DNA of 64,000 bases from Escherichia coli. GTDB lineage: Bacteria; Pseudomonadota; Gammaproteobacteria; Enterobacterales; Enterobacteriaceae. Where the stretch lies: the NCBI RefSeq assembly GCF_030013595.1, contig NZ_CP122768.1; one strand, 5' to 3'. The notes below the pieces were generated by a model. The model searched no databases. It saw nothing but the letters and a program-made list of their open reading frames with translations, and had not been told where the DNA came from. Shown one piece after another: positions 37,410 through 42,900 of the stretch (positions within the stretch are counted from its first letter, which is position 1; every line of letters starts with the position of its first letter). Both the position numbers and the translations under genes were made by a program.

Positions 37410-40400
37410 TTACCACTGAATACCGGCACCGAGCGCGGCGGAGTATTCACCCTGGCTATTGGTACTACCTTGTAATTTGTAGACCCAACGACCATTGGCG
37501 CTCACCATCGACACACCTAAAGCAACAGCCGATTCACCATTGTAAGTACCGCCACCAATAGAGGCCATGCTGGCACCTGGAGTGTAAGCCTGCGGCAGAC
37601 CGGTCATTGCCATTGCAGAAGCGATACCACCGCTCAACTTGCTTTCGGTTTTGGACAGTTTGTTATCCATCTCAACCATCCGCTGATCGGTATATTGCTT
37701 CGTTTCCTGCACGCTTTGCTTCAGCTGCGCATAGTTCACTGCGTCGTTGTTGTTCACGCCAGCGGAGACGTTGCTGATGCGAGTCGTACCGCCATTACCA
37801 CCACCGAGAGTGATGTTGCTGTAGTCTACAGAGCCATCAGCTTTGGTGTCGTAACGAACGCCGCCTGCCTCAGAAGACTTCAGCTGCGAAACGTTAACCG
37901 CATCGGTGGCATTAACACCTGCAGCAACGTTGGTGATACGACGCTGGTTGGTAGAAGAACCCACAGAGATGGTATTTTCTTCGTTGGCCACGGAGCCTGT
38001 ACCCAGCGCGACGCTGTTGTCAGCGGCAGCAATGGAACCAGAACCAATCGCAACACTATCTTTACCCTGCGCGTTGGCATCTACGCCATCGGTGTTGGTC
38101 TTGAAGTATTTGGTGCTACCGGTGGTTACGATATCGCCAATGCCGTTTTCGATATTGGTAACGCGAGTATCCAGATTCGTCACCTGATTGTTCAGGTTAG
38201 TAATGCTCTGGGTATTCTGGGAAACCTGCGCGTCCGTTACTTTCAACTGACCCACGTTAACCGCATCGGTATCCGCTGAACCAGCCGCGACGTTGGTGAT
38301 CTGACGTTGACCGTCTTCACTGCCGACAGAGAACTCACCCACAGAGTTCTGTGGTGCGTCCATGTTGTAGGCGGTGTAGCCAGTTTGAGCACCACGAGTC
38401 GTCTGTGAGCCACTACCCATAGCAATGCTGTTTGCATGGTTTGCACGCGCGTTGCTACCAATAGCAATGCCATTAAGTGCATTCGCGTCCACGTAGGCAC
38501 CATAACCGATACCAATACCCACATTACCATTAACGATAGTTTTCGCGCCCATTGCTAGCGAGTCTTCACCTACTGCCAGTGAATCTTCTTCCGTTGAGTT
38601 GGAGTGGAAGTATTTGGTCGGCGTGGTAGCGACTGCACCAATGGCATTTTGCAACTGGCGAACCGTAACGGCGTCATGGGCTTCGGAACCATCGGCTACG
38701 TTGATGATTTGACGATATTTACCGTCATCACCAATAGACAACGCACCAAGTAGTTCGCCATCCGTGGTGTCATAACCAATCACAACACCTTCTTCCGACA
38801 CGCTGGTGTCACGAGAACCTTTAACTATTACACGGCTGGAAACAGAACTGCTACCCAGAGCGATACCCGTATCAACGTTGCTGTAGCTGCCCTGACCAAT
38901 GGCTACGCTGCTTTCGCCTGAGGCGACAGCGTTATAACCCACAGCCGTAGCGCCAATACCTGAAGCGCTGGCATCGTTGAACGCTAAGCCGTTGTCGTTG
39001 GTACGTACATAGTTAATACCCGCACCGTTATCTTCGATGTAGGTTTCGCTGGTGTTACCGGCAAGCTGATTGATGATTTCGCTGTTCTGCTGGATCAGCA
39101 TATTGGTGTTAAACAGCTGAGAACCGTTGATGGCGTCAGTGCTGCCTTCGCCAATGTTACCATCAGCAACGTTTGTGATGATGCTGGCCTTGCCATCATG
39201 GCTGGCGTTGTAGGCACCTGCGCCGTCATTGGCCGTTGCATCCCACAGCAGAGCGTTATCGTCGAGCGCATCCAGGGCGTCACCGACGTTGTTGTACTCG
39301 GCATTTGCAATGGTGTAACTCGGCGCAGTGATAGTGCCATCAGCGTTGACTTCTGCGTCACCACCCAGCGCATCAGCGATGTACTTGTTGGTGGTATACA
39401 GTTGTGAACCGTTAATGGCATCGCTGCTGGTGGAGGAAATTGCACCGTTAGCGACGTTAGTGATTACACTGGCTGTTTTATCTTTTCCGTGAGCGGCGCT
39501 AAATGCACCATTACCATCATTGGCTGTGGCATCCCACAGCAGGGCGTCATCCAGCGTGGTATCGATCGCTTCCAGCGCGTCACCGACGTTGCTGTAACTG
39601 CCGCCAGCGATGGCATAAGTCGGTGCGGTGATTGTGCCGTCAGCATTGACTTCTGCGTCACCACCCAGAGTATTGGCAATGTACTTGCTGGTGTCATAGA
39701 GCTGTGAGCCGTTAATAGCGTCGCTGCTGGTAGAGGAAATTGCACCGTCTGCAACATTAGTAATGATGCTGGCCGTGTTATCTTTTCCGCGACCGGCGCT
39801 AAACGCACCGTCACCGCCCTTGGCGGTCGCATCCCAGAGTAGGGCGTCACCCAGTGATGTGCTAAATGACGTGTTAATGGCAGCCAGAGCATCACCGACG
39901 TTATTGTAGTCAGTACCACCAATAGTGTAGGTTGGCCCGGTTAATACACCCGCATCACTGATATCAGCACCACCGCCAAGGTATGACGTAAATGAATCAG
40001 CTAAGCCATAAAGTTGTGAGCCATTAATGGCGTCAGTGCTATCAGAGGATACCGTGCCTGCCAGTAAGTTGGTGATTTTGCTATCAGTACCGTTGGTACC
40101 GTGTTTGGCACTGAATGCACCCGCCGTAGCGTTCCACAGCAGAGAGTCATCACCGAGACTGTCAACAGCGTCAGTCAGGTTGGTGATGTTGGTGGTATTC
40201 GTGGCGATATTGGTGGTGTTGGCTGCCACGGCATCGTTAGTGGTTTTGAGCTGAGAGCCGTTTACCGCGTCAGTGCTACCAGCCGTCAGGTCACCGTCTT
40301 TGACGTTGGTGATTTTGCTGGTGGCATCGGTACCGTGCGCGGCGCTGAACGCGGTGCCATTCCACAGCAGGGCATCGTCTTTAAGGTCGCCAACGGAATC

Positions 40401-42173
40401 CGTCAGGTTGGTGATGTTGGTGGTGTTGGTTGCCACATTATCGTTAGTGGTTTTGAGCTGAGAGCCGTTAACCGCGTCGGTGCTGCCAGCCGTCAGGTCA
40501 CCGTCTTTGACGTTGGTGATTTTGCTGGTGGCATCGGTGCCGTGCGCGGCGCTGAACGCGGTGCCATTCCACAGCAGGGCATCGTCTTTAAGGTCGCCAA
40601 CGGAATCCGTCAGGGTATTGATACTGTTAGTGTTGGTGGTGATATTGGCAGTATTGGTCGCTACGTTATCGTTGGTGGTTTTCAGCTGAGAACCGTTAAC
40701 CGCATCCTTACTGGTATCAGAAATAGCGCCGTCTTTAACGTTGGTGATGGTACTGGTAGTATCTGTACCATGTGCCGCACTATATGCCTTTTTAAGGGAG
40801 TCCCATTGTAACGTATTATTGTCCAGGCCCGTTAAGGCGTCGCCAACAGTGCCGAAAATACCACTTTTCAGCCTGTAATTTGGGGAAGTAACGACGCCTT
40901 GCGCATTGACGGTAGCCCCCCCACCAAGATTGTCCGCTACTGACTTACTGATAGCATAAAGCTGTGATCCATTGATGGCATCAGTACTGGTAGTGCTGAT
41001 ATCACCTGCTGCCATATTGACAATTTGTCGCTGAGCTGTTGTGTTACCCACAGAAACAGTATCCGCGTCAGTCGCTACAGAACCAGCACCCAGAGCAACT
41101 GAATTTTTCCCCTGAGCACTGGCTTGAGCACCAATTGCAGTGCCATTTTCTAAACCGGCATAACTGCCTTGTCCAAGAGCAATAGCATTTACACCACCTG
41201 TAATACTACCATTACCCAGCGCGATAGCATTTGCGCCGTCAGCTTTATTCCCTTGACCGATGGCAATTGCGCCAGCCGCTACTGCCTGACTTTGATTGCC
41301 CAGAGCAATCGTGTTGTCGACATCTGCAATACTGCCGGAGCCCAACGCGATACTATTAAGTCCATTTGCCTCCGCGTTAGTACCAACTGCCGTCGCATTT
41401 TCAGCAGCTTTGCTCTCTGCACCCATAGCAATCGCGTTTGCGGCGTTGGCGGCGGATAGTCTACCGAATGCGAGGCTGTCTACGCCAGCTGCAGCACTGT
41501 TGCGGCCTACTGCAATCGCGTTAGCTGCAGATGCGGCGCTACTTGCACCCAGCGCCATTGCATATTCTTTCGACGCATTAGCCGTGGCTCCGAGGGCGAT
41601 ACTCATAATTCCTAAGGCCTTGCTTTCACGTCCAAATGCGATGGCGTCATCAGCACCAGTCTCTGCGTGATCCCCTTGTGCAATAGAAAATTCACCTACT
41701 GAGTTCGCATAACGACCAAGTGCGATTGAAAATCCACCCGTTGACGTTGCCGATGCACCTATAGCGAGGCTTCGCTCACCTGCTGAGGTAGTGTTAATCC
41801 CTAACGCCACTGATGCTTCGCCAAGCGAATGGGTCTTAGCACCGAGGGCTGTTGACCACCTTCCGTCAGCAGTTGAGTGATAACCTACTGCGGTGCTGGA
41901 GCCACCCCCGGTGTCTGTAAAACTATTTGCTTTTGCATCTTCACCGATAGCAACCCAGCCTGTTCCTGTTCCCTGGCCATAATTGACGCCCTGACCGTTG
42001 TCCCTTCCTGCCTGAGCCTGTACCCCAAACGACGACAACATTCCCCCAGCAACCAGGGCAGAAATTAACAGCTTACTGCGCCCGGATTTCTTGCCACGAC
42101 TCTTCGCTGTTTCGCTGGCAACGCTGTAACTGCCCGTCGCTGGATTCCAGATAACTTTAAAAATTTTGTTCAT
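37410..42173 (-). CDS. Trimeric autotransporter adhesin, 1587 aa (UpaG/EhaG/SadA-like)
   Basis: N-terminal extended signal peptide [21 protein letters not shown]...; long N/T/S/G/A-rich head and stalk repeats; C-terminal YadA-type anchor ...[30 protein letters not shown]. Confidence 0.9.
40230..40640. repeat. Near-identical direct tandem repeat, 2 x 207 bp (69 codons), inside the adhesin gene, with more diverged copies flanking
   Basis: Forward-strand ORFs 40273..40461 and 40480..40689 give identical peptides, offset exactly 207 bp; protein unit [57 protein letters not shown]... occurs twice. Confidence 0.85.
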
Positions 42174-42216
42174 TATTGATGCTCTCTATTCCTTGATATA
42201 AGCGCAGAAGCTGCAT

Positions 42217-42900
42217 TTATTTTTTGTTTTTTCGCTGCCGAGTTTCAGCAGGTTGAACAGTGTCGAACTGGAGATTGGCCATATTGATGGACAACTTCAG
42301 ATACTTCAGGTTATTAGGCGAAACGCCTTTTAATGTCAGATTAATGTCTTGCCATTGACCAGGCATTAATTGCAGAGTGGAATTCATGGTGGTGTTGAAA
42401 AGTAATTGTTGCCACTTTGCCAGAGCTTTGGCATCGGTGGGTCTTTCATTGCCCCATGTCGCATGAAAGCCAATATTTGATACGGGAACGCTTAAAAGGT
42501 TAACCAGCGAAATACGAATAACACTGCCATTTTCAACCGCATCAATAGCCAGCACCCGGCCTGCCAAACCGACCGATCCGTTATTTAAAATGAAATATTG
42601 TGTTTGTGCTGGGTTAAATTCTGTAAAGACAAATTCGTCCTGCTTGTCTTTAACCGCTTTCACCACTCCAGCGAGCGTCTTGGTACTATTTATGACAGTA
42701 GTTTGTTGTTTTTCAAAATTTTCTATCTTTCGCTTATCGAGTTCCTGCTGTTTCTCAAGCGCCTCAATTTTGCTTTTTTGCAACTCTTGCTGTGTAACGA
42801 GGTCGTCGACCTTACTCGCTTTTTCAATATAGTCACACCCTGCCAATAAGCAGAGAGGCACTATTATTAACACGCTTAACAGTGTTTTCTTTAGGTTCAT
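42217..42900 (-). CDS. Lipoprotein with coiled-coil segment, immediately upstream of the adhesin (SadB-like helper candidate)
   Basis: 227 aa; signal peptide with lipobox LLAGC; coiled-coil QQELQKSKIEALEKQQELDKRKIENFEKQQ; 43-bp gap to the adhesin start on the same strand. Confidence 0.7.
   Translation of the reverse strand: MNLKKTLLSVLIIVPLCLLAGCDYIEKASKVDDLVTQQELQKSKIEALEKQQELDKRKIENFEKQQTTVINSTKTLAGVVKAVKDKQDEFVFTEFNPAQTQYFILNNGSVGLAGRVLAIDAVENGSVIRISLVNLLSVPVSNIGFHATWGNERPTDAKALAKWQQLLFNTTMNSTLQLMPGQWQDINLTLKGVSPNNLKYLKLSINMANLQFDTVQPAETRQRKNKK

Follow-up and report, generated by a model that had tools for sequence, protein, structure and literature searches.

The interval between yibL and lldP in the analysed window, a 64,000-nucleotide stretch of Escherichia coli DNA, almost certainly holds the chromosomal operon of Escherichia and Salmonella that encodes the lipoprotein SadB and a trimeric autotransporter adhesin (TAA). 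The operon is ancestral at this site, and the K-12 arrangement without it is derived, by deletion. We take it to be the operon named sadBA in Salmonella and, in E. coli, upaG or ehaG together with the upstream lipoprotein gene, and no feature of the sequence speaks against this. Published work already covers the operon with its helper lipoprotein, its conserved site and its loss from K-12; particular to the window are only the number of stalk modules and what may be a third allele class. We document here the anatomy of the genes, their homologies and positional orthology, the ancestral presence of the operon and its deletion from K-12. The significance of these results beyond correct annotation is small.

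In the list of open reading frames (ORFs) the gene order is mtlD-mtlR-yibT-yibL-sadB-TAA-lldP-lldR, with the TAA gene reading towards lldP. The latter ends at 37112, and its true start is MNLWQQ, the listed ORF being 9 codons longer upstream. The stop codon of yibL lies 6346 bp from the start of lldP, and sadB, the TAA gene and their spacer together take up 5491 bp. Both genes that the initial annotation had read here, a 1587-aa and a 227-aa ORF 43 bp apart, are present in the list at the places it gave. The GC content is 49.4% for the window, 41.5% for sadB, 52.4% for the adhesin gene and 35.5% for the yibL–sadB spacer, which is AT-rich, as had been noted, and 558 rather than 557 bp long. The features of the locus are collected in Table 1.

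Table 1. Features of the sadB–TAA locus (window coordinates).
Feature	Position	Strand	Basis
yibL	43459..43821	-	ORF list
AT-rich yibL–sadB spacer, 558 bp, 35.5% GC, operon control region	42901..43458	-	GC content
Candidate sigma-70-type promoter, TTGACA-18 nt-TAAAAT, 11/12 matches	43091..43120	-	Promoter scan
sadB orthologue, gene of 227-aa lipoprotein	42217..42900	-	ORF list
Intercistronic spacer sadB/TAA, 43 bp, with adhesin ribosome-binding site	42174..42216	-	Sequence reading
TAA gene, 1587 aa	37410..42173	-	ORF list; positional orthologue of upaG, ehaG, sadA
Extended signal peptide region (ESPR), aa 1-48	42030..42173	-	Pfam PF13018, E 1.7e-15
YadA-like head repeats, aa 90-377	41043..41906	-	Pfam; most variable part, 46-69% identity to UpaG/EhaG
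DALL/neck/coiled-coil stalk module array, aa about 455-1020, six DxLLW motifs	39114..40811	-	Motif scan and DNA repeat families D1-D6
Tandem repeat, 207 bp (69 aa), 2 copies, 95% identical	40202..40614	-	Repeat analysis
YadA-type membrane anchor, aa 1527-1587, ends GAGIQW	37413..37595	-	Pfam PF03895, E 2.3e-19
Intrinsic terminator hairpin, 13-bp stem and T-rich tail	37357..37386	-	Terminator scan

SadB folds as an N-terminal trimeric coiled coil followed by a C-terminal MATH-like domain. By sequence comparison the window lipoprotein is a SadB orthologue: in a phmmer search it matched Salmonella SadB (PDB 4C47) with an E value of 3.7e-70 and 53% identity over its full mature length (lipoprotein aa 23-227 against chain residues 3-207, compared at the level of sequence). 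The N-terminus, MNLKKTLLSVLIIVPLCLLAGC followed by D, has a lipobox, Cys22 and an Asp at +2 (LCLLAGC22-D23YIEK, with LAGC as the lipobox and Asp23), and the conservation profile separates the signal peptide from a coiled coil in the N-terminal part (~aa 30-90) and from a C-terminal domain, conserved over aa 91-210. The lipoprotein with a lipobox and coiled coil that had been proposed is thus what the sequence contains, and so is the similarity to SadB-like helpers on which its identification turned. We considered whether SadB might be an unusual, hypervariable periplasmic protein and rejected the idea, as the variation falls in aa 1-90 (signal peptide plus coiled coil) and spares the globular domain, which is an ordinary pattern.

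Neither DUF3251 nor any other Pfam-A family matched the lipoprotein significantly, and an NCBIfam scan gave sub-threshold matches only (PRK11530 scoring 16 bits, cut-off 158). The SadB assignment therefore rests on the PDB match and on the RefSeq names of the identical protein, which are either 'SadB/YajI family lipoprotein' or DUF3251. The missing family-model match seems to reflect incomplete libraries rather than a conflict with the match to 4C47. Grin et al. (2014) found SadB in the inner membrane, using and verifying the Asp +2 feature (PMC3953254), and the window lipoprotein, with a Cys22 that would be lipidated and its own Asp at +2, may be placed there too. SadB raises the display and integrity of SadA, an effect shown only for the Salmonella SadB/SadA pair (PMC3953254). 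YajI is an enterobacterial SadB paralogue in the same SadB/YajI family (RefSeq naming; PMC3953254), 14% identical to SadB according to Grin et al. (PMC3953254); unlike the window sadB, it lies near tsx and yajC-secDF, unlinked to any autotransporter, and the sub-threshold PRK11530 score likewise sets the window lipoprotein apart from YajI.

The adhesin, scanned against Pfam as two overlapping halves, contains many YadA_head (PF05658) and YadA_stalk (PF05662) repeats in addition to the ESPR and the anchor, so that the giant YadA-type adhesin with an extended signal peptide and a C-terminal anchor, as first described, is borne out by both terminal domains. TAAs are obligate surface homotrimers, in which anchors of about 60-70 aa contribute four strands each towards a 12-stranded barrel. 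With an ESPR-type signal peptide, probably cleaved near aa 53-55 (VQA/QA), a head/neck/stalk passenger and a YadA anchor, the window protein has the sequence features of a type Vc TAA and is predicted to be one. A search of PDB sequences matched it to solved TAA fragments of SadA, BpaC, AtaA, Hia, YadA and UspA1. The SadA fragments 2YO0 and 2YO3 gave E values of 1e-134 and 1e-91, and the membrane-proximal stalk is ~85-88% identical to them, as judged by inspection of the printed alignments; the anchor matches the Hia anchor structures 3EMO and 2GR7. Towards the C-terminus conservation is high: against UpaG and EhaG the identity is 88-100% over the last ~500 aa and 99% over the last 130 aa, and over these 130 aa it is 91-94% against the proteins of other genera.

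The closest characterized systems share the position of the window pair. UpaG of the uropathogenic strain CFT073 (c4424, WP_001033292.1, 1778 aa) occupies the same site in the order yibL-lipoprotein-TAA-lldP, with the same 43-bp spacer and domain order. It is 80.2% identical to the window adhesin overall, about 89-100% in the last 500 aa and 46-60% in the head (aa 100-400), and its linked lipoprotein is 88% identical to the window SadB. UpaG is 191 aa longer, mainly owing to insertions of 45, 68 and 73 aa that add stalk modules, and CFT073 carries a BIME downstream of upaG, which the window lacks. EhaG of O157:H7 (WP_001033191.1), at 1588 aa a single residue longer than the window adhesin, has the same site and 43-bp spacer, an anchor 99% identical, a head 52-69% identical and an overall identity of 79.4%; its linked lipoprotein (222 aa) is 66% identical to the window SadB, most of the differences falling within the coiled coil and the signal peptide. 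The solved relatives of the window pair are SadA and SadB of Salmonella enterica (STM3691/STM3690; PDB 2YO0, 2YO3, 2YNZ, 4C47), whose operon lies between the mtl and lld operons (PMC3953254), an order we also found in the Salmonella enterica genome examined here. The gap between the two genes is 44 bp according to Grin et al. (PMC3953254) and 43 bp in the window. LT2 SadB is 53% identical to the window lipoprotein and has the Asp at +2 in common, whereas SadA differs from the window adhesin in a divergent distal passenger and in length and module count. The resemblance to SadB-SadA, UpaG and EhaG loci proposed in the initial annotation is confirmed by the 4C47 match together with the ~80% identity of the adhesin to UpaG and EhaG.

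The candidate promoter precedes the sadB ATG by ~190 nt. Column identity averages 57% in an alignment of the spacer from the window, CFT073, O157, E. fergusonii, Salmonella and Pseudocitrobacter, and the invariant columns include GACA of the -35 and ATTA..A of the -10 region. On the operon strand the terminator scan found no terminator between sadB and the TAA gene; the sole one follows the adhesin gene, 23 nt past its stop codon, and the two genes are probably co-transcribed. Repression of UpaG by H-NS is reported in a secondary source (PMC5012682). Since a near-consensus, conserved promoter lies in AT-rich DNA and H-NS represses UpaG in that account, the earlier suggestion that the spacer holds a silenced promoter is plausible.

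The export pathway, helper function, adhesive phenotype and H-NS silencing of the window operon can be proposed from the published work on SadA/SadB, UpaG and EhaG. The sigma-70-type promoter in the AT-rich spacer would give one sadB-TAA transcript, ending at the hairpin past the adhesin gene. The adhesin precursor would cross the inner membrane via Sec, by means of its extended signal peptide, and three C-terminal anchor segments would form a single 12-stranded outer-membrane barrel with the assistance of BAM, of which UpaG is a substrate (PMC5670179). The passenger would be threaded outward and fold as a trimeric fibre, with the variable YadA-like head followed by stalk modules of variable number and by the conserved membrane-proximal stalk. 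The lipoprotein, held in the inner membrane as a coiled-coil trimer, may boost the amount and integrity of the displayed adhesin. Such a fibre would be expected to make cells autoaggregate and form biofilms and to bind extracellular matrix (ECM) or epithelial cells; aggregation, biofilm formation and ECM binding are the phenotypes reported for UpaG and EhaG (PMC7247748). H-NS probably keeps the operon mostly silent in laboratory conditions.

The number of stalk modules varies by strain. The RIVM_C019217 allele has 5 and the HCP5S3_I2 allele 8; the 69-aa difference between the window and RIVM alleles maps to the tandem repeat at 40202..40614, and HCP5S3_I2, otherwise a near-identical genome, encodes a 1745-aa adhesin with two additional near-identical 78-aa modules. 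The length of the gene thus hinges on near-identical modules that short-read assemblies can collapse, and the 1745-aa form might suggest that the 1587-aa length is such an artefact. It might also be argued that the operon is a decaying, non-functional remnant, silent and heading for the loss seen in K-12, as E. coli has lost it in about 23% of genomes and the conditions of its native expression are not known according to Grin et al. (PMC3953254). We consider both very unlikely: the two reading frames are intact, with all domains present from the signal peptide to the terminal aromatic residue, the length differences are in frame and amount to whole modules each, the SadB C-terminal domain and the adhesin anchor are strongly conserved, and the promoter hexamers are kept across genera.

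Three segments, namely the spacer with the promoter, the coiled coil of SadB and the head of the adhesin, diverge within E. coli as much as between genera. The window sadB DNA is 81% identical to that of E. fergusonii and 71% to that of O157, with, by contrast, 95% versus 83% for lldP. A tentative explanation, which we regard as less likely than not, is that the window represents a third major class of alleles; the classes could be long-lived lineages, either maintained by diversifying selection or passed between species, and each might differ in receptor specificity and have a SadB co-adapted to it. Because the head is just 46-69% identical to those of UpaG and EhaG, their binding specificity is not transferable to the window adhesin, and neither adhesion specificity nor vaccine cross-reactivity should be assumed.

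K-12 MG1655 lacks both sadB and the TAA gene, and yibL and lldP are neighbours there, separated by 371 bp, in line with the adjacency stated in the initial annotation. Its conclusion that the pair was inserted between them is not supported. Of 5426 complete E. coli genomes, 4149 (76%) carry sadB and 1262 have the K-12-type junction; the locus order found in the window recurs in CFT073 and O157, and E. fergusonii, Salmonella enterica and Pseudocitrobacter share the order mtl-yibL-sadB-TAA-lld. Because the operon is the majority state of E. coli and occupies the same site in these other species, the K-12 state is a deletion, as Grin et al. (2014) also called it, giving its size as 5 kb (PMC3953254). 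A horizontally acquired adhesin islet, inserted in the lineage of this strain and leaving K-12 as the ancestral empty site, would fit the short K-12 interval, the low GC content of the spacer and sadB, and the strong divergence of sadB and the adhesin head within E. coli, which could suggest allele exchange, but it can be dismissed almost entirely given the outgroup synteny, the host-like GC content of the adhesin gene, an anchor that tracks the species tree, and boundaries without flanking direct or inverted repeats in an interval without a tRNA, integrase, IS element or other mobility ORF (an Rfam scan likewise found no element in the locus). K-12 is consequently a misleading comparison at this locus, being the derived state. 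The K-12 sequence itself is consistent with deletion of an ancestral operon. The yibL–sadB spacer is wholly missing from K-12, where homology restarts only at 43458; on the lldP side homology extends to 37388, so that the terminator located past the adhesin gene is still there in K-12, and the K-12 junction ends within the REP/BIME found downstream of upaG in CFT073.

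The locus comprises a lipoprotein gene (sadB) and, 43 bp further along the same strand, the gene of a trimeric autotransporter adhesin (TAA), both lying between yibL and lldP (see the table). The ORF list and the spacer sequence agree with the initial annotation on gene coordinates, lengths and this gap. Its statement that yibL and lldP are neighbours in K-12 was also right, as the RefSeq annotation of MG1655 places them adjacent, 371 bp apart. The region upstream of sadB, described there as AT-rich and 557 bp long, is indeed AT-rich (35.5% GC, versus 41.5% in sadB, 52.4% in the adhesin gene and 49.4% in the whole window), though it measures 558 bp.

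Features of the locus and of the rest of the window (window positions unless marked aa)
Feature	Position	Strand	Source or remark
JUMPstart RNA element	8726..8764	+	Rfam RF01707, 51 bits
Family-8 glycosyltransferase, 342 aa	14555..15583	+	waa core cluster
lldP	35457..37112		end 37112 taken with conserved MNLWQQ start
Terminator hairpin	37386..37357		3' of adhesin stop
Adhesin ORF, 1587 aa	37410..42173	-	ORF list
207-bp tandem repeat	40202..40614		in adhesin gene
Lipoprotein ORF (sadB), 227 aa	42217..42900	-	ORF list
Candidate promoter	43120..43091	operon strand	promoter scan
Conserved spacer block	43305..43296	-	six-way alignment
yibL	43459..43821		flanks lipoprotein side
yibF-yibH	about 48971..50786		transferred from HCP5S3_I2
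aldB to sgbE/araD-like interval	about 57237..63889		transferred from HCP5S3_I2
ESPR extended signal peptide	adhesin aa 1-48		Pfam
YadA head repeats	adhesin aa 90-377		Pfam
YadA_stalk/neck segments, about fourteen	adhesin		Pfam
YadA anchor	adhesin aa 1527-1587		Pfam

The lipoprotein N-terminus, MNLKKTLLSVLIIVPLCLLAGC-D, carries a lipobox whose Cys22 directly precedes an Asp, and the entire crystallised chain of Salmonella SadB (PDB 4C47) aligns to residues 23-227 (E 3.7e-70; 53% identity). The lipoprotein had no significant match in Pfam-A or NCBIfam; RefSeq names the identical protein either 'DUF3251 domain-containing protein' or 'SadB/YajI family lipoprotein'. The adhesin's membrane-proximal 420 residues match two SadA fragments of known structure, 2YO0 (E about 1e-134) and 2YO3 (E about 1e-91), with, by inspection, roughly 85-88% identity; in NCBIfam the adhesin matched generic TAA models only, all under their cut-offs. 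In CFT073, RefSeq upaG (1778 aa) sits between yibL and lldP with a 227-aa lipoprotein gene 43 bp upstream, and in an O157:H7 genome ehaG (1588 aa) occupies the same place, with a 222-aa lipoprotein gene 43 bp upstream. The 4C47 match, the TAA domains, and the identity to UpaG/EhaG and shared position bear out the earlier assignment to the SadB-SadA/UpaG/EhaG type. These results show how the operon is built, which domains its products have and which loci it is orthologous to; the locus is already known as a feature.

The two genes had been described as inserted, which the distribution of the operon does not support. By blastn, sadB is present in 4149 of 5426 complete E. coli genomes, always on the chromosome and nearly always in single copy, and a K-12-type junction (231-bp probe across yibL/lldP, coverage at least 80%) was found in 1262; between them, the two states cover essentially every genome in the set. 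The order mtlA-mtlD-mtlR-yibT-yibL-sadB-TAA-lldP-lldR recurs on contigs that encode SadB homologues in E. fergusonii, Salmonella enterica and Pseudocitrobacter corydidari. K-12 homology on the lldP side reaches window position 37388, taking in the terminator hairpin, and restarts one base past the yibL stop. Against CFT073, just 10 bp of K-12 lack alignment, and the distal end point of the K-12 deletion falls inside a REP/BIME 58 bp downstream of upaG. According to the ORF list and a repeat search, the interval is free of mobility genes and tRNA, and no repeats bound it. Outgroup synteny, retention of the hairpin by K-12 and this lack of mobility genes, tRNA and bounding repeats led us to reject insertion; with the genome counts and junction homology, they indicate that presence of the operon is ancestral and that K-12 has a clean deletion of spacer, sadB and adhesin gene. 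Grin et al. 2014 had already described the K-12 state as a deletion (PMC3953254). In CFT073 and K-12, REP/BIME elements lie between the terminator hairpin and the adhesin stop (CFT073) or deletion junction (K-12); the window, at 37389..37409 (set against L005 41321..41440 and L001 5030..5124), has none.

Overall adhesin identity is 80.2% between the window and UpaG, 79.4% between the window and EhaG, and 78.2% between UpaG and EhaG. Against both it rises from 46-69% in the head (aa 100-400), through 66-87% in the module array, to 88-100% in the last 500 residues. Between the SadB of the window and its counterparts, identity is 88% for CFT073 and 66% for O157; residues 1-90 (signal peptide and coiled coil) are the variable part (mean conservation about 0.68), compared with about 0.9 in the globular domain (residues 91-210). 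Judged by these identities, the window carries a known operon in a third allele class, found (sadB identity at least 95%) in 745 of the 5426 genomes. Both SadB (66% identity within E. coli, 64-74% between genera) and the head (60-70% and 44-58%) diverge as much within the species as between genera. The anchor (99% within E. coli, 91-94% between genera) and LldP instead track how the species are related. Surface fibres with a variable tip usually show this pattern, as do low-constraint coiled coils, and it is no new kind of system; the allele classes may be long-lived or exchanged. The YibL protein (WP_000665680.1) is identical in the four compared strains, and DNA identity among the window, CFT073 and O157 is just 93-95% for yibL and 95-96% for lldP; the divergence of the window's yibL is thus presumably mostly synonymous, and looks like elevated linked diversity beside the hypervariable sadB/head cassette.

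A nearly identical genome, E. coli HCP5S3_I2 (pig faeces, UK), is 100.0% identical over window 43000..64000 and 99.9% over 1..25000. Its 1745-aa adhesin has two further DALL/neck modules at residue 607, near-identical and 78 aa long, and also differs by four substitutions. RIVM_C019217 has a second close allele, shorter by one 69-aa unit that corresponds to the 207-bp tandem repeat. Close relatives thus differ in module number; alternatively, one of the assemblies collapsed the near-identical repeats, which may affect the adhesin length of 1587 aa. HCP5S3_I2 also has an IS200/IS605-family tnpA between rpmG and mutM, absent from the window (about 5711..5740), which accounts for a roughly 700-bp indel. 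The family-8 glycosyltransferase ORF is intact in the window, whereas the HCP5S3_I2 annotation gives it as a pseudogene interrupted by an internal stop.

The promoter scan found TTGACA-18-TAAAAT (11/12 matches) in the yibL-sadB spacer. Mean column identity of the spacer among the window, CFT073, O157, E. fergusonii, Salmonella and Pseudocitrobacter is 57%, and the invariant columns include GACA of the -35 and ATTA..A at the -10. Conservation of the hexamers within a poorly conserved spacer supports a genuine promoter, which lies about 190 nt ahead of the sadB start. A TCTGAAAA block is also nearly invariant amid poorly conserved DNA; it may serve as a regulator site or belong to the 3' end of yibL. 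A passage in PMC5012682, citing Totsika 2012, gives UpaG as repressed by H-NS.

Published work on orthologues suggests how the products may act. The adhesin would be exported via Sec with its ESPR signal peptide (for ESPR in autotransporters generally, see the 2026 survey, bioRxiv 10.64898/2026.01.22.700529), and its trimeric barrel would be assembled in a BAM-dependent manner, as studied on UpaG itself (PMC5670179). SadB is predicted to be anchored in the inner membrane and to enhance display of the adhesin; Salmonella SadB is so anchored and raises SadA display and protease resistance (PMC3953254). The same survey places SadB homologues in Enterobacterales only and identified no further TAA helpers. 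The displayed adhesin may then promote aggregation, biofilm formation, and ECM or epithelial binding, phenotypes described in PMC7247748.

Elsewhere in the window, Rfam gave no match above the gathering score besides the JUMPstart element, which precedes the waaQ (rfaQ) LPS-core operon, as expected. yibF directly adjoins yibH and no Rhs element separates the two; in K-12, RhsA lies in this neighbourhood. The interval between aldB and the sgbE/araD-like gene is accessory in content: it holds a 'type I restriction endonuclease' gene that stands alone, the toxin-antitoxin pair hicAB, and clustered genes for GH127 glycoside hydrolase, MFS transporter and AraC regulator proteins.
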